Part shown: one piece after another, positions 52,312 to 64,000 of the stretch
Layout of the letters: every line of letters begins with the position of its first letter
Numbering within the stretch: the first letter of the stretch is position 1
NCBI GenBank assembly: GCA_963728165.1
Contig: CAVSIY010000008.1
Span: 34,397-98,396 of the forward strand
Origin: an uncultured Alphaproteobacteria bacterium
GTDB taxonomy: Bacteria > Pseudomonadota > Alphaproteobacteria > Rhizobiales > Hyphomicrobiaceae
Direction: 5' to 3'
DNA length: 64,000 nt
The notes under the pieces: model-generated
Seen by the model: the letters and a program-made list of their open reading frames with translations, nothing else
What the model was told of the DNA's origin: nothing
Databases searched by the model: none
Position numbers and translations under genes: made by a program

Positions 52312-52871
52312 GAGTGCCGGCAAAGCCGCTTGGTAGCTATCCCTTCTACCTGCAGCCGTTCTTCGCCAACCAGCGCCGCAAGTACGGCGAGGCGTTGCAA
52401 TCGGCGCTGCTGTGGGCCCGCTCCCCGAAGCTGTTCTTGGGCGTTGCCTTTCTCTACGGCATGATCGACCGGCGCTCCTCGCCCATCGAGCCGGCTCTGC
52501 GCTCCCTCATCACCGTGCGCGTGTCGCAGATCAACGATTGCCCCTTCTGCGTCGATCTCAACTCGGCGACGCTGATGAAGCGGGGCGTCCCACAGGAGAA
52601 GGTGGACGCGCTCGAGGACTGGCGCGCCAGCAATCTGTTCGATAGCCGCGAGCAGGCGTCGCTCGAGTACGCGGAAACCATGACGCGGTCCGATCTGCGG
52701 GTTGGGGATGAGCTGGTGCAGCGGTTGCGGGTCTTCTTCGACGATGACGCCATCGTGGAGCTGACCGGCCTCATCGCCTTCCAGAATCTGTCGAGCAAGT
52801 TCAACAGCGCGTTGGGCGTGCCGGCCCAGGGGTTCTGCCGGCTGCCGCCTGCCAATAAAACCGGAGGATGA
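52308..52871 (+). CDS. Carboxymuconolactone decarboxylase / AhpD-like protein (CxxC)
   Basis: RVSQIN.CPFC.D.N, E.A.L.YAE..T, IVELT..IAFQNL.SKFN; ATGA coupling with cusA. Confidence 0.88.
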   Translation: MRVPAKPLGSYPFYLQPFFANQRRKYGEALQSALLWARSPKLFLGVAFLYGMIDRRSSPIEPALRSLITVRVSQINDCPFCVDLNSATLMKRGVPQEKVDALEDWRASNLFDSREQASLEYAETMTRSDLRVGDELVQRLRVFFDDDAIVELTGLIAFQNLSSKFNSALGVPAQGFCRLPPANKTGG

Positions 52872-53248
52872 CGATGCACGTCTATCGCGCGGCCGCGCTG
52901 GCGCTGATTATGATGGCGGCGGCCGGAGCCGCCTTCGGCCACGCCAAGATGACGTCGAGTGTTCCGAAGGACGGCGCGACGGTCCCCGCGGGCCTCGCAA
53001 AGATCGAGATGCAGTTTTCCCATCCCATGCGCCTCACGCTCGTGCGCGTGCACCGCGCCGCTGACGACACGTACGTGGCGGTTCAGGGCGCGCTGCCCAA
53101 GGCCTTCGCCGATGCGGCCACGGTGCCAGTCGACGCGCTCGCCGAGGGCGCCTATGACGTCTCGTGGACGGCGGTGTCGAAGGACGGGCACGTGATGAAG
53201 GGGCACTTCGCGTTTACGGTTTCAGCGGGCGCCGCGCCCGCACAATGA
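52868..53248 (+). CDS. copC: Periplasmic copper resistance protein CopC
   Basis: Signal peptide then H1 (AFG-HAK..SS.P.DG), Y.VSW.AVS.DGH...G.F.F.V; no Met-rich Cu(I) loop. Confidence 0.88.
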   Translation: MTMHVYRAAALALIMMAAAGAAFGHAKMTSSVPKDGATVPAGLAKIEMQFSHPMRLTLVRVHRAADDTYVAVQGALPKAFADAATVPVDALAEGAYDVSWTAVSKDGHVMKGHFAFTVSAGAAPAQ

Positions 53249-54097
53249 TCGTGCCCGAGCAAGTCGCCGTCTTGCTGCGCGCCCTCGTCTACGCCGGCGC
53301 GATCGCGACCGCGGGCGCCATGCTGTTCCAAGCGAGCTTTACGCAGGCGGCGCGCGCGGTTGCCCCCGTCCTGCGGCGCCAGATCCTTATTGGCTTCCTG
53401 TTGCTGCTCGTCGTCGAGCCGCTGCGCTACGGCATATTTCAGCTCGCCATCGCCGACGGCGACTGGACGCTGGCGTTCGGGCCGGACCTGCGCTGGATGG
53501 GCATGCTAACGCCGATCGGACAGGCTGCGGCCGTGCGCCTGATCGCCGCCGCCGTCATCGTCGCCGCCGGCTTGCGATGGGCTCCGATCGGGTTAACGGC
53601 GGCGTTCGTCGTGATCGGCTCGTTTCTGCTCGAGGGGCACACCGCCGCCAGCGAGGGGCGCCTTTTGGTTGCGCCCCTTCTTTTTGTCCACCTGACGGCC
53701 GTGCACTGGTGGCTCGGCGCGCTCTTTCCACTGATTGCCGTGACGCGCCGCGTCGAGCCGGCCGCCGCCGTGGCGACGATCGAGTTGTTCGGGGGGCGGG
53801 CCATCCTTGTCGTCGGCGGCCTGTTGGCGGCCGGGCTGTTGCTCGTGCTCCTGCTGACGGGCGGCGCGGTGCGCCTCGACAGCGCCTATCAGCAAAGGTT
53901 GGCTGATCAAGCTCACACTCGTCGCCCTGCTCTTGTCGATTGCCGCCGTCAACAAGCTGCGCCTGACGCCGCTGCTCCGCCGCGACTATGCCCTGGGTGC
54001 GGCGCGCCTGCGCGCCTCCATCCGTGTGGAGATCGCCGTGGCCGCCCTCATCCTCTGCGCCTCCGCCTGGCTCGTCGCCACCGGCCCCGACACCTAG
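53245..54097 (+). CDS. copD: Copper resistance inner-membrane protein CopD (+1 frameshift at ~53901)
   Basis: Multiple TM helices; GHT, HL.AV.WWLG.L, then in the shifted frame KL.LV..LL.IAA.NKLRLTP. Confidence 0.85.
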
Positions 54098-56588
54098 CGC
54101 GCTGACCGTCTTGTCGTGCGAGCCACCATCCCACGAGCTCGGCGACGGCCCAGCTCCACACGATGCCCGCAGCGATCATCAAAGAGACGGCAAGGTCGAT
54201 GGGCACGAGGCCGAGGAGCGCGCGCAGCGCCGGGACGAGCACCGTCAGCACCTGCAGCACGATCGATCCCGCCACGGCAACATGCAGAAACGTGTTGCGC
54301 AGCGGCTTGAGATGAATGCGGCGCGAAGGATAGGCGAACGCCACCTCCGCCATCAACTCGTAGAGGAATACCGCCGTCCGCGTCTCTAAGATGGCGTAGC
54401 CGAGAAACGGCAAGAGCAGGAACAGCACGATGCCGGCGAACGCCTTGGCCAGCCCCGAGATGACAATGAAGCGCACCGAGACGGCGTCGAGCAGTCGCCC
54501 GTCGGCCGGGCGCGGCCGCCTGTTCATGATGCCCGGGTTTTGGTCGAAGGTGAGCGCGAGCGCCGGCGCGCCGTTGCCGATCACGTTGATCCACAACAGC
54601 TGCACGGCGGTGAGCGGCAACAGGAACATGCCGCCCTCGGGATCCTTCAATCCCAGCATGAAGGAGAGCCCGAGGCCGCCCACGACGAGCAGGACCAGCG
54701 CCAGGTTGGCGGAGAACAGGAAGCGGATGCACTTCTGGATGTTCTCGTAGATGCTGCGCCCTTCCTCGATCGCAGCGACGATGGTGGCGAAGTTGTCGTC
54801 CATCAGCACGAGATCGGCGACCTCGCGCGCCACGTCCGAGCCGCGCCGCCCCATGGCGACGCCGACGTCGGCGCATTTCAGGGCCGGTGCATCGTTGACG
54901 CCGTCCCCGGTCACGGCCACCACTTCGCCGTTGGCCTTCAATGCCTCGACCAGCTTGAGCTTGTGCTCGGGGGAGGCGCGCGCGAACACATCGACGTCGC
55001 GCACGGTCGCCCGCAGCTCATCTGCCGACAGGCCATCGAGGTCACGCCCTGACAGAACCCGACGCGGGGCAATGCCAATCGCCTCGGCGACGGTCTCGGC
55101 GGTGGCGGGATGATCGCCGGTAATCATGACGACGCGGATGCCGGCGGCCTGCGCCAGCCGCAGCGCGTCACGAACCTCAGGCCGTGGCGGGTCCCACAAC
55201 AGCACGAGGCCGAGAAAGGTAAGGTCTGTCTCCGCCTCGCCCTCGCGCCAGCCGAGCGCCAGCACGCGGTAGCCTTCCCGCGCCTGCCGCTGCGCCTCAG
55301 CCTCCCAGGCTTCTTTCTCCGCCTCGGAGAGGCGGCTGCGGGCGATAAGCACCTCCGGCGCGCCCTTCAGGTAGCTCGTGGGCCGCTCCTCCTCGAGAAC
55401 GGTGACGCGCATGAAGCCGTCGGCGCTGTCGAAGGGGCGGCTACCCAGCCGCAGGTGGCCATTCATCAGCCCGAGCGCGTCGTGCCCCTGCGCGGCGGCA
55501 AAGTCGAGGAGCGCAATCTCCAAGGGATCGCCCACGCGCGCGCCGGGCTCGGCGTCATTGGCCAGCACCATGGCCTTCAAGGCGCGCGCCTCGTCCGCCG
55601 CATCGAGCGCCTTCACGTACATGCGGTTCTCGGTCAGCGTGCCGGTCTTGTCGGTGGCGATGACGGTGACGGAACCCAGCGCCTCCACCGCGCTCAGGCG
55701 GCGCACGATGGCCTTGCGCCGCGCCAGGCGCTCCACGCCGAGCGCGAGAGCCAACGTCATCACCGCCGGCAGCCCCTCGGGCACCGCCGCGACGGCGAGC
55801 GCCACGGAGAACAGGAGCACGTGGCCGATGCGCGCCACGCCCTCCACCACGAGGCCACCGAGCGTCAGCGCGAGCCCTAGGCCTAAGATCACGTAGGCGA
55901 CCTGATTGCCAAACGTGCGCAGGCGGCGCTCGAGCGGCGTGGCGCCTGACTCGATTCCGCCGATCATGGTGGCGAGCTGCCCCATGGCGCTGTCGCGCCC
56001 GGTGCGAAAAACCTCCATGTAGCCTTTGCCGCGCACGAGCAGGGTGCCGCTGAGGAGCTCGGCGCCGACGCGCTTGGCAACGGGAAGCGACTCGCCGGTG
56101 AGCACCAACTCGTCCACCAGAACCTCGCCCTCCGACACCACCACGCCGTCGGCCGGGATGCGGTCGCCCGCCTCGATGCGCGCCACATCTCCGGGAACGA
56201 GGTCGCGGCTCGGGATCTCCTGAAGCTCGCCATCGCGCAGCACCCAGACGTTGGGCGCCGCCATCGCTTTGAGACGGGCGAGCGCCGCCTCCGCCTTTCC
56301 CTCCTGATAGGTTCCGAGCCCGGCGTTGAGCACGAGGATCACGGCGATCGCCACCAACTCGATGGGAACGCCCGGTGCACCCTCGTAGGCCCACAGTGCG
56401 ATATCGACGCCAAGCGCAAACAGCAGGATATAGATGAGCGGGCTTGCGAACTGACGCGCTAGACGCTGCCAGATGCTTGCAGGCGGCGTCTCGGGCAGCG
56501 CATTGGGACCTTGGCGGGCAAGGCGCGCTGCCGCCTCGGACCCACTGAGGCCCTGCAGTGTCCCAGCTCTTGCAACGCCAGCCGACAT
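54048..56588 (-). CDS. P-type ATPase, subfamily IIA-like (PacL/CtpF/LMCA-like) with atypical ion-binding residues
   Basis: [38 protein letters not shown]. Start uncertain (56588 or 56675). Confidence 0.9.
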
Positions 56589-56605
56589 AACCGCGTCCTC
56601 TCCGC

Positions 56606-57622
56606 TCAGTGCCCGAACACGTAAAGCACGTAGGAGTTCAACAGATAGACGAGAAACAGGGAGAGACTGATCCAATCGAGATAGCGGAAGGCGCGCCGCT
56701 TGGCTCGGTAAAGGATGCCGACCACCACGATGCCGGTCATGATCACCGCAGAGAAGGCGGAGACGGCGTGCACGGGCGAGACGTGCGATAAAATCGGCCC
56801 TTTCCGGTAGGCGATGTCATCGATCGCCAGGATGAGGATGTCGAACAGATTGCTACCCAGCAGGTTGGCGATCGCCATGTTGATCGCGCCGAGGCGCAAG
56901 GCCGCGATCGTCACCACGAGCTCGGGCAGCGAGGTGGCGCCAGCGACGAAGAGCGTGCCCACGAACGTCTGCTTCCAGCCCATGGCGTCGGCGAGATCGG
57001 AGCCCACGAACGGCAGCCAGACGCCGGCTGCAACCAGAACCGCTGCGGCCGCCAGATAGCGGCGCACGGCCGTGCGCAAGGTAATGTCGGCGTATTGCGC
57101 CGCCACCTCCTCGACGAATGCCTCGCGCTGGTTGCGCTCGTAGGAGAACACGGTGCGAATTGCGATCAGGTAGAGGCCGATGATGATCGGCGAGTAGAGC
57201 CCGACGTGGCCGACGTTGAAGACGAAGCGTTGGTCGGCGAGGATGACGCTCATACCCGCAAAGCCGATCAGCACGATGCCGAATCCGGCGGCAAGAATGT
57301 GGCCCTGATGCACACGCAGGAAGATCGGCTCATCGCGGTGCAGGAGGTCCAAGACGATCAGGATCGCGAGATTGAACACGCACGAGCCCATGACGTCGCC
57401 GACGGCGATGTCGGGCACGTCGGCGATGGTCACGGCGCTGAGCCCCGTGATCAGCTCCGGCAGCGAGGTGACGGTCGCCAGCAGGATGAGGCCGATCCAG
57501 TTGTGCGACAGGCCGGTCTTCTCGGCGATAATGTCGCCCGAGCGCGAGAGCTCCGGCCCGGCAAGGCCGATGAGGGCCGCGCAGACGATAAACTCCAGCC
57601 AGATCAAGCCGAGATCTGCCAC
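56606..57622 (-). CDS. Cation/Ca2+ antiporter (CaCA, YrbG-like)
   Basis: Alpha repeats ATVTSLPEL...G.VMGS.VFN and AGATSLPEL...NLLGSNLFDI; GGAGGAGG RBS before GTG 57622. Confidence 0.9.
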   Translation of the reverse strand: MADLGLIWLEFIVCAALIGLAGPELSRSGDIIAEKTGLSHNWIGLILLATVTSLPELITGLSAVTIADVPDIAVGDVMGSCVFNLAILIVLDLLHRDEPIFLRVHQGHILAAGFGIVLIGFAGMSVILADQRFVFNVGHVGLYSPIIIGLYLIAIRTVFSYERNQREAFVEEVAAQYADITLRTAVRRYLAAAAVLVAAGVWLPFVGSDLADAMGWKQTFVGTLFVAGATSLPELVVTIAALRLGAINMAIANLLGSNLFDILILAIDDIAYRKGPILSHVSPVHAVSAFSAVIMTGIVVVGILYRAKRRAFRYLDWISLSLFLVYLLNSYVLYVFGH

Positions 57623-57743
57623 CCCGCCCCCTCCTCCCCGATTATCTTTGATTATCTTTGATTCGAGATCGATCCCACTCCGCCCGCCGATCCCTATCAC
57701 GCAAAGGCCTGTGCGTTTGCGCCACAGGCTCCGGGCGCCGGCT

Positions 57744-57757
57744 TTGACCTTGATCAA
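57744..57757. promoter_or_regulatory. FNR/FixK-type box TTGAC-CTTG-ATCAA
   Basis: One mismatch to TTGAT-N4-ATCAA, in the divergent intergenic region between the CaCA gene and phaC. Confidence 0.75.
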
Positions 57758-57892
57758 TTTTGGCGGCCCGCGCTTCAAGTTGGGCCGTCGGGCAACCACA
57801 TATTGCCACAAAATCTAACCCGCACGAGACATGCACGCCATACCAGCCTGTCTTCGCTATCACGTCGACCTCTCACCAGCAGCGAGCGCCCC

Positions 57893-59761
57893 ATGAACGA
57901 GATGAGCACGGCCGAACGCCGCACCGGCGCGGCGCCCCTCGACCACTCAGGTCAGCCGCCAGGGGACAAGGCCCACGTGCCGCTCCCGGCCCGCGCAGCC
58001 CTGGCACCGCTGCCGGGATGGCTGGGCGAGGACGGGGTGGATCCTTCGCTCGAATTGGCGGACGTGCTCGACCGGTCCCTCAACTACGCGCGCTCGCGCC
58101 TCACTCTGGGGTTGTCGCCGGCGGCCCTCACCGAGGCCTACTTCGATTGGCTCGTCCATCTCGGCGCAGCGCCCGGAAAACAATTGCAGCTGGCGCAAAA
58201 GGCGCTGCGCAAGTGGCTGCGTCTCATGCACTACATGGCGACGAGCGCGCCCACGCAGAAGCAGCACACGTGCTGCATCGAGCCGCTCCTCAATGACAGG
58301 CGCTTCAACGCCGATGGATGGCACGGCTGGCCCTACGACGTCATCTACCAGACGTTTCTGTTGCAGCAGCAGTGGTGGCACAACGCGACGACGGACGTTC
58401 GCGGCGTCACCCAGCAGCACGAGCGCCAGGTGGAGTTCGCGGCCCGCCAAGTCCTCGATGTCTTCTCGCCGGCAAACTTCATCGCCACCAACCCCGAGGT
58501 TCTGCACAAAACCATGGCCACCGGCGGCCTCAACCTGGTGCGCGGCTTCTGGAATTTCGTCGAGGACTGGGAGCGCTCGATCAACGGGCGCCCGCCCGCG
58601 GGCTCGGAGGCCTTCAAGGTGGGCGTGAACCTGGCGGTGACGCCGGGCAAGGTCATCTTCCGCAACGAGCTCATCGAGCTCATCCAGTATACGCCCACGA
58701 CCGACAAGGTGCGGCCCGAGCCGGTTCTGATCGTGCCGGCGTGGATCATGAAGTACTACATCCTCGACCTCTCAACCCGGAACTCGCTGGTGAAGCACCT
58801 CGTCGAGCAGGGCTTCACCGTTTTCATCATCTCCTGGAAGAACCCCACCTCGGAAGACCGCAACCTGGGCCTCGAGGACTACCGCACGCTGGGCATCGAG
58901 GCAGCGCTCGCAGAGATCGACAAGGTCGCCCCCGGCAACATGGTCCATGGCGTCGGCTACTGCCTCGGCGGCACGCTGCTATCCATCGAGGCCGCGGCGC
59001 GGGCGCGCAACAACCACGATCCGTTCAAGACCGTGACCTTGCTCGCCGCGCAAGTCGACTTCACCGAGCCAGGCGAGCTCGGCCTCTTCATCAATGAAAG
59101 CCAGGTGTCGTTCCTCGAGGACATGATGTGGCAGCAGGGCTATCTCGATGCCCACCAGATGTCAGGAGCCTTCCAACTCTTACGCTCCAACGATCTCGTC
59201 TGGTCGCGGATGGTGCGCGACTACCTTATGGGCGAGCGCCGTCCCATGATCGATCTCATGGCGTGGAATGCCGATTCGACGCGGCTTCCCTACCGCATGC
59301 ATTCGGAGTACCTGCGCCAGCTCTTTCTCAACAATGACCTGGCGGAGGGGCGCTATCGCGTCGGCGACCGGCCGATTGCCCTCACCGACATCCGCGCGCC
59401 CGTCTTCGCGGTCGGCACCGAGCACGACCACGTGGCGCCGTGGCGCTCGGTCTACAAGCTCAATCTTTTCCTCGATACCGACGTGACGTTCCTGTTGACG
59501 AGCGGCGGACACAACGTCGGCATCGTCTCCGCGCCCGGCGTGCCGGGGCGCCACTACCGCGTTCGCACCAAGCCCGAGATCAGCCCCTATGCCGACCCCG
59601 ACACCTGGGTAAGCGAGACGCCCGAGAAGCAGGGATCGTGGTGGCCGGCGTTGTTCGGCTGGCTGGCCGCGCACTCCGGCCCCATGCAGCCGGTCGACGC
59701 TGCGCGGGCGACACCCACCGCGCTCTGCGACGCACCAGGTGCCTACGTCTTGCAAGACTGA
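57893..59761 (+). CDS. phaC: Class I polyhydroxyalkanoate synthase (PhaC2-like, with N-terminal extension)
   Basis: NLAVTPGKVIFRNELIELIQY, VPAWIMKYYILDL, lipase box GYCLGG, DHVAPW, SGGHNVGIVS, GSWW. Confidence 0.95.
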   Translation: MNEMSTAERRTGAAPLDHSGQPPGDKAHVPLPARAALAPLPGWLGEDGVDPSLELADVLDRSLNYARSRLTLGLSPAALTEAYFDWLVHLGAAPGKQLQLAQKALRKWLRLMHYMATSAPTQKQHTCCIEPLLNDRRFNADGWHGWPYDVIYQTFLLQQQWWHNATTDVRGVTQQHERQVEFAARQVLDVFSPANFIATNPEVLHKTMATGGLNLVRGFWNFVEDWERSINGRPPAGSEAFKVGVNLAVTPGKVIFRNELIELIQYTPTTDKVRPEPVLIVPAWIMKYYILDLSTRNSLVKHLVEQGFTVFIISWKNPTSEDRNLGLEDYRTLGIEAALAEIDKVAPGNMVHGVGYCLGGTLLSIEAAARARNNHDPFKTVTLLAAQVDFTEPGELGLFINESQVSFLEDMMWQQGYLDAHQMSGAFQLLRSNDLVWSRMVRDYLMGERRPMIDLMAWNADSTRLPYRMHSEYLRQLFLNNDLAEGRYRVGDRPIALTDIRAPVFAVGTEHDHVAPWRSVYKLNLFLDTDVTFLLTSGGHNVGIVSAPGVPGRHYRVRTKPEISPYADPDTWVSETPEKQGSWWPALFGWLAAHSGPMQPVDAARATPTALCDAPGAYVLQD

Positions 59762-59776
59762 ACGGGGACGCGGCCC

Positions 59777-60061
59777 ATGATCACCTTGCAGGACTGCATC
59801 GCCTTTTGCGGGTTGACCGAGGAGGAGGTGTTGGCGCTCGCCGAGCACGAGCATGTGCCCGAGATCGTCGCCACCGGCCTCGCCTGCCAGCTCATGAAGC
59901 AGCGCCACGGGCCGGACAAGGTACGCACCATGATCGTCGAGGACATCCGCTCTGCGTTGGCCCGCGGCGACCGACGCCACGCCCAGGAGCTGTTCGCAGC
60001 GTTGCGTCACTTCCTCAGCCAGCATCCAGAAATCTGCCGGGCGGGCCAAACCCGACCGTGA
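59777..60061 (+). CDS. Conserved hypothetical protein (CxxxC / EHEH)
   Basis: MITLQDCIAFCGLTEEEV.ALAEHEHVPEIVA; starts 15 bp after the phaC stop. Confidence 0.7.
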   Translation: MITLQDCIAFCGLTEEEVLALAEHEHVPEIVATGLACQLMKQRHGPDKVRTMIVEDIRSALARGDRRHAQELFAALRHFLSQHPEICRAGQTRP

Positions 60062-60169
60062 CGCCACAGTCCCATCGCATTCCGGGCTGCACGTTCAGAG
60101 TCCGGCACCCCGAGTGCCGCATTTTTTGCTTACCCCTCGTCGTTCCTTTCCGTTGCCATGGAGGCTGTC

Positions 60170-60536
60170 ATGATCGAGCTCTTGAAAGACTTCCCCGGAA
60201 ACGTCGTCGCACTTGTCGGCGGCCGGCCGCGTGACGAAAGAAGATTACGAGAAGGTGGTGATCCCGGCGGTCGAGCGTGCGCTGTCCCAGCACGACAAGG
60301 TGCGCCTCTACTATCAGATCGGCACCGACTTTTCCGGCATCGATCCCGGCGCCATGTGGGCTGACACCAAAGTCGGCATGGGGCATTTCCTGCGCTGGGA
60401 TCGAATCGCGGTGGTGACCGATGTCGACTGGATCCGCCTTTCGGTGACGGCCTTCGGCTTCCTGATGCCGGCGCAAGTCAACGTCTATTCGACGGCAGAG
60501 GCCGCCGCAGCGAAGAAATGGATCACCACCGTGTAA
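60170..60536 (+). CDS. SpoIIAA-like / STAS-SEC14 domain protein (+1 frameshift at ~60215)
   Basis: MIELL..FP.NVVA / G.VT.EDY..V.IP, A.W.D..VG..H..RWDRIAVVTD..WI; GGAGG RBS. Confidence 0.82.
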
Positions 60537-60645
60537 GTCGGCGGCACCGCACTTGACCAGCAGGCCTTCGACTGGGAAAGACTTCGGCTGGCCGGCTCGT
60601 CCGCGCCGGCCGATGCCGTTCGCTTAAGCAGCAAGAGGTCGAGCG

Positions 60646-61618
60646 ATGACTGCGGTAGCCAAACCTGCGGCGGAGTGGGCGCTCGTCGGCGACATCGGCG
60701 CGACCAACGCGCGCTTCGCGCTGGTGGCGCCCAACGGAGAGCTCGCCGAGATCCAAACGCTGTTGTGCGAGGACTACCCGACCATTGCCGACGCCATCGC
60801 CGCCTACCTCACGGAAGCGAGCGGCGCGAAGCCGGTAGAGGCCGTACTCGCAGTGGCCGCCTCGCCCACGGGGGACGAGGTCTCGATGACCAACCATCCC
60901 TGGACCTTCTCGATCGAGGCGCTGCGGCAGGCGATCGGGCTTGAACGGCTCAAGGTCGTCAACGACTTTCACGCCAACGCGGCCGTCGTCCCGCATCTGG
61001 CGCCGCCTGAGCGCAACAAGATCGGTCGCGGAGAGCCGATCGCCGGGGCGCCCATCGGCGTCATCGGGCCGGGCACCGGCCTTGGGGTGAGCACGCTCGT
61101 CCCAACATCGGCAGGACCCAAGCCCATGCCGGGCGAAGGCGGGCACGTCACCATGGCGCCGGCCGATGCGCGCGAGAGCGCCGTGCTGGAGATCATGCGC
61201 TCACGCTATGATCACGTCTCAGCCGAGCGCGTCCTGTCGGGGCCCGGCCTCGTCAATCTCTACAATACGCTGTGCGAGCTCGAGCACGTCAAGGCGGCAC
61301 CGCTCACTGCCGCGCAGATCACCGACCCGAAAATCGCCATGACCGACGCACGCGCGCGCGAGGCGACGGCCATGTTCTGCGCCATGCTCGGCACCATCGC
61401 CGGCAACCTGGCGCTGACGCTCGGGCGCACAGGGCGGAATCTACATCGCCGGCGGCATTGTGCCTAAGCTCGGCGACGCCTTCGCGCAATCGTCGTTCCG
61501 GGAACGCTTCGAGGCCAAAGGGCGGTTTTGCGAGTATCTTGCCGCGATCCCGACCTATGTCATCGTGCGTCCCTTCGCGGCGTTGCTCGGAGCCTCCAAG
61601 CTCCTCCACTCCGCTTGA
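60646..61618 (+). CDS. glk: Glucokinase (+1 frameshift at ~61425)
   Basis: [43 protein letters not shown]; the shifted frame gives [11 protein letters not shown]...[10 protein letters not shown]. Confidence 0.9.
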
Positions 61619-61620
61619 TC

Positions 61621-62559
61621 TCAGACGGCCTCGATCGTCACCTGGCCCAGAAGACGCTCGACGTCCTCCTTGCGGCAAAGGTCGGTCGCCGGCGTGAGCA
61701 GCGCCGCCGATCCCGCCGCAATGGCGTGGCGCAGCGCCTCGTGCGGCGCCTGCCCGCTGCTCAAGGCCCAGATGAAAGCCCCGAGAAAGCTGTCTCCCGC
61801 GCCCACCGCGCTGACGAGCTTCACCGGCAGCCCGGCGGCATACCAGGCCTCCTCCCGGCCGACAAGCAAAGCGCCGCGCTCGGCGAGCGTCAGGGCGACG
61901 AACTCCGCCCCGCCGGCCGCAATCAGCTGGCGGCAGGCGCCGATCCATTCGGCCTTGCTCGTCAAGGGCGCGTCCATCAGATCACGCATCTCGCGCAGGT
62001 TAGGCTTGATGAGATGCACGCCTTTCTTCAGCGCGGCCTGCAACACCGGCTTCGTGCTGTCGACGATGAGCTTTGCACCTTTGTCCTTCGCGAGGTCGGC
62101 CAAGACACTGAAGAAGTCGGCCGGCACGCCTGCCGGCAGGCTGCCGCTGGCAACGATGAACGAAAGGGAAGCATCGAACGCGGTGATGGTCTCCAGGCAG
62201 GAGCGCCATTCCGGCTCGCTCAGCTGCGGTCCGGGCACCACGAAGCGGTATTGCTCACCGCTTACCTGCTCGAAAACGGTGAAATCCTCGCGCGTCTCCT
62301 CGGCAATCGCCACCGTGCGACTCTGCACGCCCTCCGCATCGGTGAGCTTGCGCAAAAGCGCGCCGATCATGCCACCGGCGGGATAGACCGCGACGACATC
62401 ACTGCCCAACCGGCGCACGACGCGGGCCACGTTGATACCGCCGCCGCCGGGATCGCGCCGCACCGGGCCGCAGCGCAGCTTGTGGATGGGCTCCAGGCGC
62501 TCCACGGAGGTGGAGACGTCGATCGTCGGATTGAGGGTTAGCGTGAGAATGCTCGCCAT
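61621..62559 (-). CDS. pfkB: 1-phosphofructokinase-family hexose kinase (PfkB / Pfk-2)
   Basis: TLTLNPTID, PGGGGINVARV, SGSLP.GV, IKPN..E, SAVGAGDSFLG. Confidence 0.92.
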   Translation of the reverse strand: MASILTLTLNPTIDVSTSVERLEPIHKLRCGPVRRDPGGGGINVARVVRRLGSDVVAVYPAGGMIGALLRKLTDAEGVQSRTVAIAEETREDFTVFEQVSGEQYRFVVPGPQLSEPEWRSCLETITAFDASLSFIVASGSLPAGVPADFFSVLADLAKDKGAKLIVDSTKPVLQAALKKGVHLIKPNLREMRDLMDAPLTSKAEWIGACRQLIAAGGAEFVALTLAERGALLVGREEAWYAAGLPVKLVSAVGAGDSFLGAFIWALSSGQAPHEALRHAIAAGSAALLTPATDLCRKEDVERLLGQVTIEAV

Positions 62560-62571
62560 GTTTGCGCGAGC

Positions 62572-62832
62572 TTACTTCAGTATCTCGGATTCGGCTTGCG
62601 GCAGATGCTTCTGGACGCGCTCCAGAAAGGCTTCCCACGACAGATTGAACAGATCGAGCAGCAGAATGAGCCCGCCAGCTGAGAGCTTCTCCTCCCCCGT
62701 CTCAATGCGTGTAACCGCGAGCTCTGGCACCTCGAGCGCGGCCGCCATCCGCTCGCGCAGGGCATGGTGCTCCTCATGCAGCTCGCGCACCGCCAAGCCG
62801 ACGGCCAGATCATAGGCGGCTCGCTTGTGCAT
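62572..62832 (-). CDS. Small XRE-like helix-turn-helix protein
   Basis: VG.AVRELHEE....RE.MAAALEVPELAVTRIETGE..LS; ATG at 62832, 11 bp after the upstream stop. Confidence 0.6.
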   Translation of the reverse strand: MHKRAAYDLAVGLAVRELHEEHHALRERMAAALEVPELAVTRIETGEEKLSAGGLILLLDLFNLSWEAFLERVQKHLPQAESEILK

Positions 62833-62843
62833 AGTGTCCCCCT

Positions 62844-64000
62844 TCAGACCCCGAACGGATAGGTGTCGGGCAGCCCCTCGAGCTGCACCGTCTCGAACGG
62901 CGTCACCGCCTTGGTCGCATCGAACCAGACATACTCGTCGAACTGCTGCGGCAGCACCGCCTGGAAATAGTGGCTCGCAAGCTCCGTCTCGGGCCGATAG
63001 ATCACGCCGATGGCGCGCTCGAGCCGCGGCTTGGTCAGCGCCTCGCGCAGCTCGCCCCCAAGCGTGGACCCCAGCGGCAAGAGAAACTGCTGCTTGCCCG
63101 TCGCCTCGGAGCCCGTATGGCACAAGCGCTCGTAGCTGCGCGCCAGCGCTGGGCGCACCGACTTGAACTCCACCGGGCCGTCCCATTCGGAGGCCGCGGC
63201 GACCGTCCCGTGATCGGTGCCGAAGCCGACGAGGTAGGCGCCGGTGCCGAACTCGGCGCGGCACAGCTGGCCGATGTTGTGCTCGCCGCGCATCGACATC
63301 TCGGTCGCCCGTGCGTTGCCGACGTGCGAGTTGTGCGCCCACACGATGGCCTTGGACTGCGGCCCGTAGAAGTGCAAGAGCGTCTTCAAGGTGTCGAACA
63401 TGTGGCTGTCGCGCAGGTTCCAGGAGGCGCGCGAGCCGTAGTACATGATGCGGTAGTAGCGCTCCGCATTGGCGACGAGGCGTGCGTTCTGCACCGCGTC
63501 GAGAAAGCGCTCGCCGTCGTGCAGCGCATACTCGCTCGACTTCGCCAGGATGCTGTTCAGCATGTGCACGACGTCGTGCTCGCAGGAGCGGTAGGTCCCG
63601 GTGAGCGCGGCGCGGCCGTAGGTCGCCGGATCGGCCTGCCAGGGCGTCAGGCAGCCGTAGCGCTCGCGCGCGATCGCCGCAGTCGCCGGATCCACGTCCT
63701 CGAGATAGGACAGCACCGAGCGCATGGAGTTGTAGAGGCTGTAGAGGTCGAGCCCATGGAAGGCGACGCGCCGCTCGAGCGGCACGGCACCGTTGTACTC
63801 GCGCATCCAATCGACGAAGGCGCGCACCTCCTCGTTGCGCCACATCCAGGTGGGGAAGCGGGCAAACGCCGTCCACTCGGAGGGCGGGAACTCGGAGTGG
63901 CGCACATAGTGGTCGACGCGTGCAGCGTCCGGCCAGTCGCCCTCGATGGCGACGAAACGAAAGCCCTTCTTCAAAATCAGCTCGCGCGAAATGCGCGCGC
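62844..64000 (-). CDS. Erythromycin esterase family protein (5' end outside window)
   Basis: FVAIEGDWPDA, FHGLDLYS, SWNLRD.HM, VWAHNSHVG.ARAT, LERAIGVIYRP, QFD...WFD. Confidence 0.88.
   Translation of the reverse strand, partial: ARISRELILKKGFRFVAIEGDWPDAARVDHYVRHSEFPPSEWTAFARFPTWMWRNEEVRAFVDWMREYNGAVPLERRVAFHGLDLYSLYNSMRSVLSYLEDVDPATAAIARERYGCLTPWQADPATYGRAALTGTYRSCEHDVVHMLNSILAKSSEYALHDGERFLDAVQNARLVANAERYYRIMYYGSRASWNLRDSHMFDTLKTLLHFYGPQSKAIVWAHNSHVGNARATEMSMRGEHNIGQLCRAEFGTGAYLVGFGTDHGTVAAASEWDGPVEFKSVRPALARSYERLCHTGSEATGKQQFLLPLGSTLGGELREALTKPRLERAIGVIYRPETELASHYFQAVLPQQFDEYVWFDATKAVTPFETVQLEGLPDTYPFGV

Follow-up and report, generated by a model that had tools for sequence, protein, structure and literature searches.

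Bradyrhizobium is a rhizobial alphaproteobacterium related to the organism treated here, an uncultured member of the Hyphomicrobiaceae whose genome (G000; 3.95 Mb in 9 contigs) contains the 64,000-nucleotide stretch of DNA that was analysed (contig C8, positions 34397 to 98396; below, the window). A preliminary description of the right-hand end of the window proposed an oxygen-regulated dormancy island around one FNR/FixK box, with genes for cation transport, polyhydroxyalkanoate (PHA) synthesis, hexose phosphorylation and an esterase. From its sequence, this region is quite likely the left part of a ~14.7-kb FnrL-type low-oxygen regulon cluster of a Hyphomicrobium-like alphaproteobacterium. 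A comparison of PfkB loci puts the genome within Hyphomicrobium or close to it. The idea of a low-oxygen cluster is not new, as comparable clusters in Bradyrhizobium and Burkholderia have already been described (PMC6515984, PMC3721108).

In B. diazoefficiens, the proteins and transcripts induced at 0.5% O2 are listed in Table 2 of PMC6515984, with fold-changes of the microoxic versus oxic transcripts. Among the FixK2 targets listed there are the protein-L-isoaspartate O-methyltransferase (PCMT) bll4651 (28.7x), the PHA synthase phaC2, bll6073 (13.5x), which is divergent from a CBS gene, and the CBS protein blr6074 (35.6x). Also induced, and not listed as FixK2 targets, are the glucokinase blr4658 (9.4x), the 1-phosphofructokinase (1-PFK)-family hexose kinase blr4659 (12.1x), the CBS protein blr4646 (28.1x), and the universal stress protein (USP) bll4644 (19.3x) together with the host-attachment protein bll4645 (21.8x). 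The preliminary description had named phaC2 as a FixK2 target, and the table agrees.

These Bradyrhizobium genes of the FixLJ-FixK2 regulon (bll4644-blr4659 and bll6069-blr6074) have the same TTGA-N6-TCAA type of box as the locus studied here. With orthology judged by product names and Pfam families only, the present genome shares with the B. diazoefficiens microoxia set the PCMT, the glucokinase, the 1-PFK-family kinase, CBS, Host_attach with USP, PNPOx, hemN and phaC2. The two differ in that the Host_attach/USP and PNPOx genes, although box-linked here too, lie on other contigs, in that the adjoining regulator is of the Fe-S FnrL type and not FixK2, and in that the genes here form a single cluster, which also takes in a CaCA/P-type ATPase operon.

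In the low-oxygen-activated (lxa) locus of Burkholderia cenocepacia J2315, a PHA synthase of class I is listed at 224x, a pfkB-family kinase at 89x and a cation ATPase at 15x (PMC3721108, Table 4). The locus has Anr-like regulators, a TGA-N6-TCA motif stands at 17 intergenic sites, and deletion of lxa lowers anoxic survival (PMC3721108). Its overlap with the mycobacterial DosR regulon was already pointed out by Sass et al. 2013 (PMC3721108). Like lxa, which is an accessory multi-operon locus with many FNR/Anr-like motif copies and its own Anr-like regulator, the cluster here comprises five or six transcription units with four boxes, has an fnrL-type gene inside it, and contains a PHA synthase, a pfkB-family kinase and a cation P-type ATPase, a correspondence at the family level only. 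It does not have the multiple USPs and the small heat-shock protein that lxa has within the locus. lxa is a USP-dominated set of 50 genes, and its Hsp20, nitroreductase, acetate kinase, alcohol dehydrogenases and ribonucleotide reductase have no counterpart in this cluster, whereas the lxa paper makes no mention of PCMT-Ere, DUF2267 or CBS genes (PMC3721108). lxa is betaproteobacterial, and the likeness lies in kit and logic, not in synteny.

In Mycobacterium tuberculosis, the Rv2028c-Rv2031c operon is listed as hypoxia-induced, and within it the pfkB gene Rv2029c adjoins Rv2030c, whose product combines an Ere-superfamily domain with a phosphoribosyltransferase (PRT) domain (PMC4410610, the one source from which the adjacency is taken, as M. 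tuberculosis was not among the matching genomes in the search of control genomes). CtpF is a DosR-regulated SERCA-type homologue that exports Ca2+ (PMC6879984). Both agree with what the preliminary description had said of the DosR regulon, namely a pfkB gene, an erythromycin-esterase-domain gene and ctpF. The cluster here resembles the DosR (DevR) regulon in its adjacent pfkB and Ere-superfamily genes and in its SERCA-type P-type ATPase. It differs in having a CRP/FNR regulator and FNR-type boxes where the DosR regulon has a two-component response regulator and Dev boxes; Rv2030c, moreover, carries the phosphoribosyltransferase domain instead of PCMT, and the DosR regulon has no PHA synthase. 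The resemblance is best taken as an analogy by convergent recruitment, not as membership.

Boxes and the FnrL-type regulator

Box 1 (TTGACCTTGATCAA, 57744-57757, a palindrome given no strand) lies in the spacer between the divergent CaCA-ATPase and phaC operons. The operator looked for was the 14-bp palindrome TTGAT-N4-ATCAA, with its FixK2 variant TTGA/C-N6-T/GCAA. The pattern TTGAYNNNNRTCAA has a single match in the window, which is box 1 itself, against 0.05 expected; among 100 shuffled versions of the window, 4 had at least one match. Genome-wide, 34 boxes were found versus 3 for the reversed-pattern control, an excess of about 11-fold, and other control motifs of the same composition gave 0 to 13 matches. 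Nearly all of the boxes (32/34) lie outside coding open reading frames (ORFs).

Past the window end are three more perfect boxes, at C8:99940, 100758 and 101702. Features there are given below in window-equivalent coordinates on contig C8, in which these are box 2 (65544-65557), between the DUF2267 and CBS genes, box 3 (66362-66375), upstream of an fnrL-type gene, and box 4 (67306-67319), upstream of hemN, all again without a strand. Each of the four boxes stands in a 5' intergenic region, and together, within 9.6 kb, they form the densest box cluster of the genome (permutation P ~0.003). The motif is over-represented, intergenic and upstream of transcription units, as would be expected of an operator. 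The box at 57744-57757 is present as first described and is the only match in the window, but it is the outermost of four and not the centre of the island, because the three other boxes and the regulator gene sit 7.8-9.6 kb further right.

The fnrL-type gene (66513-67265, plus strand; Pfam cNMP_binding/HTH_Crp_2) has box 3 as its own upstream box. Its product has Cys8, Cys11 and Cys19 in a CX2CX7C arrangement and a central Cys107, which gives the four cysteines of a [4Fe-4S] ligand set, and it has an ETVSR recognition helix, as a cognate E..SR regulator would, a helix also seen in one paralogue. The cysteine pattern and the best NCBIfam model, FnrL, liken it to FnrL of Rhodobacter and FnrN of Rhizobium, although its 186 bits are below the equivalog cut-off of 300. 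FnrL targets include hemN, ALA (5-aminolevulinate)-synthase and ccoN genes, and hemN, ALA-synthase-like and ccoN-like genes are box-linked here, while PCMT-Ere, pfkB, phaC and the ATPase are not classical FnrL targets.

Elsewhere in the genome, boxes adjoin a COX1-family ccoN-like gene, an ALA-synthase-like aminotransferase gene, a USP gene, a Host_attach gene with a tandem USP behind it, and genes for a PNPOx-family protein, a flavodoxin, thioredoxin 2 (Trx2) and a HesB-type Fe-S protein, and two boxes precede a Crp/Fnr paralogue. Judged by gene families, the box-linked set across the genome looks as an FNR/FixK regulon typically does.

Three relatives (G015, which is also L004, G021 and G022) carry the same cluster and have boxes in the matching spacers, and the parts covered by a partial contig (L003) and by the fragmentary contigs of G014 agree with it. 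The fnrL-type gene adjoins the cluster in the first three and in the covered parts of the other two. In each of the four genomes where CaCA and phaC diverge (G000, G014, G015 and G021), the spacer between the two genes holds a box whose half-sites are kept while the bases between them vary (CCTT, CCTT, ATCA and CCGC). Half-sites kept at orthologous sites around a drifting spacer are what would be expected of an operator, with G022, where the box is lost, and G014, where it is displaced, as the exceptions. In G000, G015 and G021 the phaC ATG always lies 142.5-144.5 nt from the box centre, whereas CaCA is anywhere from 112 to 208 nt away. This fixed distance on one side and variable distance on the other argue that box 1 is positioned relative to the phaC promoter.

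Downstream of box 1 and before phaC is a conserved block, GCGCTTCAAGTTGG...GCAACCACATATT.CCACAAAATCTAAC (57770-57820, plus strand). Its ~50 nt are nearly invariant in four genomes, are kept in G022, and are more conserved than the flanking coding sequence. The block probably serves as core promoter or leader of phaC, or as a site for another regulator. A sigma-54 reading of it was rejected by inspection, as the GG/GC spacing is unsuited. When 54000-64000 was searched with Rfam for a possible leader RNA, there was nothing in the spacer and only a sub-threshold sbcD match inside the ATPase gene, and a scan of the spacer for the sigma-70 consensus gave no match. A -10-like hexamer at class II spacing was seen by sequence inspection for hemN and for phaC of another genome, G029.

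The genes of the cluster and their distribution

The cluster spans ~14.7 kb, its 13 genes make up five or six transcription units, and the window covers its left two-thirds; the genes beyond the window were called from ORFs guided by GC content at third codon positions (GC3) and from Pfam. The gene content given in the preliminary description stands by Pfam at the level of families, except that the helix-turn-helix (HTH) match is marginal, that the esterase is one half of a larger fusion protein, and that frameshifts interrupt glk and the SpoIIAA-like gene.

To the right of box 1, phaC (57893-59761, plus strand) encodes a class I-like PHA synthase (Pfam PhaC_N, PHBC_N and Abhydrolase_1) which scores 531 bits with the NCBIfam model PHA_synth_I, below the cut-off of 623. 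It is the second copy in the genome, and its paralogue at C2:440896-442362 is 38% identical. It is followed after 15 nt by a gene for a 94-aa hypothetical protein, hyp94 (59777-60061, plus strand), which has no Pfam or NCBIfam match. hyp94 is conserved in G022 (89%), and a 72%-identical paralogue at C2:376151-376405 adjoins a box-linked USP gene. Next are the SpoIIAA-like PF11964 gene (60170-60536, plus strand, with the ATG at 60170 and an ORF at 60213-60536 that matches Pfam at 7.4e-25) and the glucokinase gene glk (60646-61618, plus strand, with an uninterrupted ORF to 61467), whose product matches profile positions 1-254 of 314 of Pfam Glucokinase. glk is single-copy, and the genome has no second copy of it.

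The hyp94 paralogue lies in a second box-controlled cluster, C2:374480-379653. There, a box at C2:375520 stands between an exo/endo-phosphatase gene and a divergent USP gene, the hyp94 paralogue converges on this USP gene, and a box at C2:379640 precedes a Host_attach gene and a tandem USP. The cluster mirrors the pair of bll4644 (USP) and bll4645 (host attachment) of B. diazoefficiens. A different small protein of ~80-97 aa (...DDLK..RDE.KLKIHLGS.E.Q...) is encoded after a perfect FNR box at C6:50406-50770 in this genome and at L056:2357-2720 in a relative, where it is directly upstream of phaC. Neither copy has a Pfam match, and the protein could be phasin-like or a stress protein.

To the left of box 1, the first gene of the leftward operon encodes a CaCA-family cation exchanger with two Na_Ca_ex repeats (56606-57622, minus strand; Pfam Na_Ca_ex 1.3e-28), which matches the NCBIfam calcium/sodium antiporter model below its cut-off. 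After a gap of 14 nt comes the gene for a type II P-type ATPase, closest to type IIA (54048-56591, minus strand, with an alternative TTG start at 56675; Pfam E1-E2_ATPase, Cation_ATPase_N and Cation_ATPase_C). Its best NCBIfam scores are with PMR1- and SERCA-type Ca pump models, all below the equivalog cut-offs, and among solved structures the Listeria Ca2+-ATPase LMCA1 comes nearest to it (E 4e-118). In M6 (residues 675-691 of 847 aa) the ATPase reads INVIGNGAP where LMCA1 reads INLVNDSLP, and Asn replaces the aligned Asp, which we take to be the Ca-binding Asp, SERCA Asp800. The same Asn is found in the G021 and G022 orthologues and is therefore not an error; the PEGL motif of M4 is intact. 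The Asn-variant ATPase may have an ion specificity differing from Ca2+. The exchanger is restricted to 4 of the 39 genus genomes, G000, G014, G015 and G021, all of which have the ATPase-CaCA/phaC divergence. The cluster is bracketed on the left by copC/copD-like ORFs (window 52868-54105), which overlap the 3' end of the ATPase gene, and on the right by OEP/HlyD/RND genes (L001:15714-19474; C8:103713-110469), with the hemN-OEP junction kept in L003, L004 and G021.

The operon that reads leftward from box 2 begins with a DUF2267 gene (64886-65389, minus strand; Pfam) and ends with pfkB (61621-62559, minus strand; Pfam PfkB 1.4e-44), which encodes a hexose or hexose-phosphate kinase of the 1-PFK subfamily. 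The kinase is above the cut-off for the NCBIfam model TIGR03168 'hexose kinase' (307 bits against 216) and below the equivalog cut-offs for 1-PFK and PFK-II, and its gene is single-copy in the genome. Between the two are PCMT-Ere (62844-64889, minus strand, in the window up to 64000), a 681-aa fusion with Pfam PCMT and Erythro_esteras domains, and a gene for an 86-aa protein (62572-62832, minus strand) with marginal HTH_31/HTH_3 matches (E 0.03-0.05, below cut-off), which is possibly an XRE-like HTH protein and is kept between PCMT-Ere and pfkB in G014, G015 and G022. The esterase of the preliminary description is the C-terminal, Ere-like half of this fusion, which runs past the window end. 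On the other side of box 2 is a CBS-pair gene (~65634-66053, plus strand; Pfam CBS), and after the fnrL-type gene and box 4 comes hemN (67398-68735, plus strand; Pfam Radical_SAM/HemN_C), which passes its NCBIfam equivalog cut-off. A look in the next window for more boxes and for USP, CBS or Hsp20 genes had been proposed as a check; three perfect boxes and the CBS-pair gene are there, as well as the fnrL-type gene and hemN, while the island has neither USP nor Hsp20.

Within the genus, PCMT-Ere was counted by us in ~24 of 39 genomes, as full-length or split hits. At all 12 genus loci inspected, that of G000 included, a perfect box lies upstream of PCMT-Ere or of its DUF2267-led operon, with varying neighbours. 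Genes related to phaC stand behind FNR boxes or adjoin PCMT-Ere in L055, L056 and L064. On this comparison the cluster appears as a mosaic of box-controlled modules, of which the CaCA-ATPase-phaC arm is the rarest.

At PCMT-Ere loci in four other genera (G044, G046, G074 and G077) there is no strict box and there are no island genes within 20 kb, and the synteny is therefore genus-level. One further close homologue has housekeeping genes around it. A distant contig labelled Bradyrhizobium sp. (L147) has a polyhydroxybutyrate (PHB) depolymerase gene, FtsH and PCMT-Ere genes that each follow a box, Host_attach and two USP genes. In a metagenome sample of 80 loci with Ere homologues (55-90% identity, flanks often much shorter than 10 kb), Ere is fused to PCMT in at least 51, and the neighbours include pfkB at 1 locus (a near relative), DUF2267 at 7, phaC at 3, the ATPase at 3 and USP at 2; a strict box lies within 700 nt upstream of 7 of the 41 fused PCMT-Ere genes that could be evaluated. 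With pfkB at 1 of 80 loci, a general linkage of Ere and pfkB was rejected as a rule and is sporadic.

The Ere-pfkB pairing nevertheless recurs in three phyla: at the alphaproteobacterial loci, on contigs of Bacteroidaceae metagenome-assembled genomes (MAGs; L011 and L013), where PCMT, Ere and PfkB lie close together, and, from the literature, in M. tuberculosis. At L011:1624-8422 there are genes for an S41 peptidase, a methyltransferase, separate PCMT and Ere, and PfkB, with DUF2267 and PEBP in between. At Virgibacillus PfkB loci (34-35% identity), tblastn found no other island protein. Co-occurrence elsewhere had been put forward as a check on the island; the kit does recur, but it is not obligatory, and the full set is syntenic only within the genus.

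Competing readings

Several observations weigh against reading the cluster as one FnrL-controlled low-oxygen unit. When both flanks of box 1 were inspected by eye for -10 hexamers at class II spacing, none was convincing, and the predicted phaC core promoter would place the box near -57, not at -41.5 (class II) or -61.5 (class I). In G014 the box is displaced by ~80 nt towards CaCA, and in G022 the ATPase-phaC pair and the phaC promoter block are kept with both the box and CaCA missing; together these indicate that control in the spacer is evolutionarily labile, and either arm may be the one controlled. Two genes of the phaC arm carry frameshifts. The SpoIIAA-like gene is frameshifted near 60213, so that its N-terminus, MIELLKDFPGNVVAL, is in another frame than 60213-60536, where five relatives have MIELLKDFPGNVVALSA.GQVTK... 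in a single frame throughout. glk is frameshifted near 61418-61435, its missing C-terminus of ~60 residues lying in the +1 frame and reaching 61618, which leaves 3 nt to the stop of the convergent pfkB, and it is intact in L003 and L004. The frameshifts are either assembly error or real decay; assembly error was considered because related MAGs also show split genes. The island itself contains no USP or Hsp20 gene. The USP genes of this genome are on C2, C6 and C7, with two box-linked, both on C2, and neither of its two Hsp20 genes is near a box. Outside the genus, finally, PCMT-Ere is often without a strict box or island neighbours.

The regulator is a further point of doubt, as two paralogues could, by their sequence, bind the same boxes: C1:138330, with the same ETVSR helix and without the N-terminal Cys cluster in the aligned part, and C1:215747-216571, with a DTLSR helix and itself preceded by boxes. 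It is unlikely, though with a chance worth keeping in mind, that box 1 and perhaps others are served by one of these, the first being FixK-like, in answer to another signal, which might be nitric oxide (NO), redox state, a FixLJ-type cascade or carbon status, so that the arm would not be directly sensed by FnrL. There are at least two such paralogues besides the island regulator, the two boxes before one of them suggest a cascade, and the Bradyrhizobium equivalents are targets of FixK2, which is not an Fe-S sensor (PMC6515984, PMC9104804). Against this, the four-cysteine fnrL-type gene is embedded in the cluster with its own box, and the adjacency is kept in relatives. A FixK-type cascade is also a low-oxygen response in the known systems, and this alternative would therefore alter the wiring and not the biology.

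It is improbable that this is instead a carbon-storage and sugar cluster (phaC, glk and pfkB) under local control by the HTH-like, SpoIIAA-like or CBS proteins, in which the FNR boxes would play a minor modulating part and the ion pumps would be neighbours with no relation to the rest, placed between metal-resistance operons. The copper and RND efflux genes that flank the cluster on both sides, a conserved phaC promoter block independent of the box, and arms of different distribution (CaCA in 4/39 genus genomes, PCMT-Ere in ~24/39) would all fit such a cluster. But four perfect boxes in 9.6 kb are very unlikely by chance and precede each transcription unit, phaC and PCMT-Ere recur behind boxes in the other arrangements of L055, L056 and L064, and two experimental systems show a strong microoxic induction of orthologous families. 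More improbable still is that box 1 is a functionless chance palindrome. The 4 shuffles in 100 with a match, the lack of a canonical -10 at class II spacing and the boxless G022 would allow it, and it is already disfavoured by the ~11-fold genome-wide excess over the reversed control, almost exclusively intergenic, by the box kept with changed spacer bases in 4/4 CaCA/phaC spacers, and by three more boxes and a regulator gene within 10 kb. The reading as an FnrL-type low-oxygen cluster is thus the one we favour. The oxygen-regulated island proposed in the preliminary description gains from the boxes of the next window, the conservation of the boxes, the box-linked targets and the precedent in homologous families, while its 'dormancy' label is an extrapolation and is unproven.

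Predicted working of the cluster at low oxygen

For the favoured low-oxygen cluster, we infer DNA binding, an oxygen response, induction and physiological roles as follows. The fnrL-type regulator would carry an oxygen-labile [4Fe-4S] cluster on Cys8, Cys11, Cys19 and Cys107. At low oxygen it would acquire the cluster and dimerise, and its E..SR helix would bind the TTGAY-N4-RTCAA boxes. Boxes 3 and 4 would drive the fnrL-type gene itself and hemN, box 2 the divergent pair of CBS and DUF2267-PCMT-Ere-HTH-pfkB, and box 1 phaC-hyp94-SpoIIAA-like-glk and possibly also the divergent CaCA-ATPase operon. HemN would allow oxygen-independent haem synthesis, the products of glk and pfkB would phosphorylate hexoses for substrate-level ATP, and the second phaC would make PHA synthesis a sink for reducing equivalents. 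PCMT-Ere would serve the repair or turnover of aged proteins, and the ATPase and CaCA would provide ATP-driven cation homeostasis under faltering respiration.

A more tentative suggestion, which we hold to be possible and no better than that, is that PCMT-Ere and its recurrent companions (a pfkB-family kinase, DUF2267, PEBP, CBS, USP and Host_attach) form a maintenance module that is shared across phyla and serves cells which are starved of oxygen and do not grow. It would have been recruited independently by FnrL or FixK2 in Alphaproteobacteria, by Anr-like regulators in Burkholderia and by DosR in mycobacteria. On this view the Ere-like domain would not be a macrolide esterase and would instead carry out the second step of protein repair or turnover on the methyl esters or succinimides made by PCMT.

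As a discovery the cluster is ordinary, and its interest, which is modest, lies mainly in the PCMT-fused Ere-like domain and then in the Asn-for-Asp pump variant. What it offers is a prediction, made at the level of sequence, of which genes a Hyphomicrobium-like methylotroph would place in its low-oxygen regulon: in the cluster itself ~13 genes with four operators and one sensor, and elsewhere in the genome ~25 further box-linked units. The kit of a second PHA synthase, a pfkB-family kinase, a P-type cation pump and an Ere-domain protein, which recurs in Bradyrhizobium, Burkholderia and Mycobacterium, would gain one more, independent case. It also sharpens two questions, namely what role an Ere-like domain may have when fused to an isoaspartyl methyltransferase, and why an Asn-variant SERCA-like pump would join hypoxia regulons.

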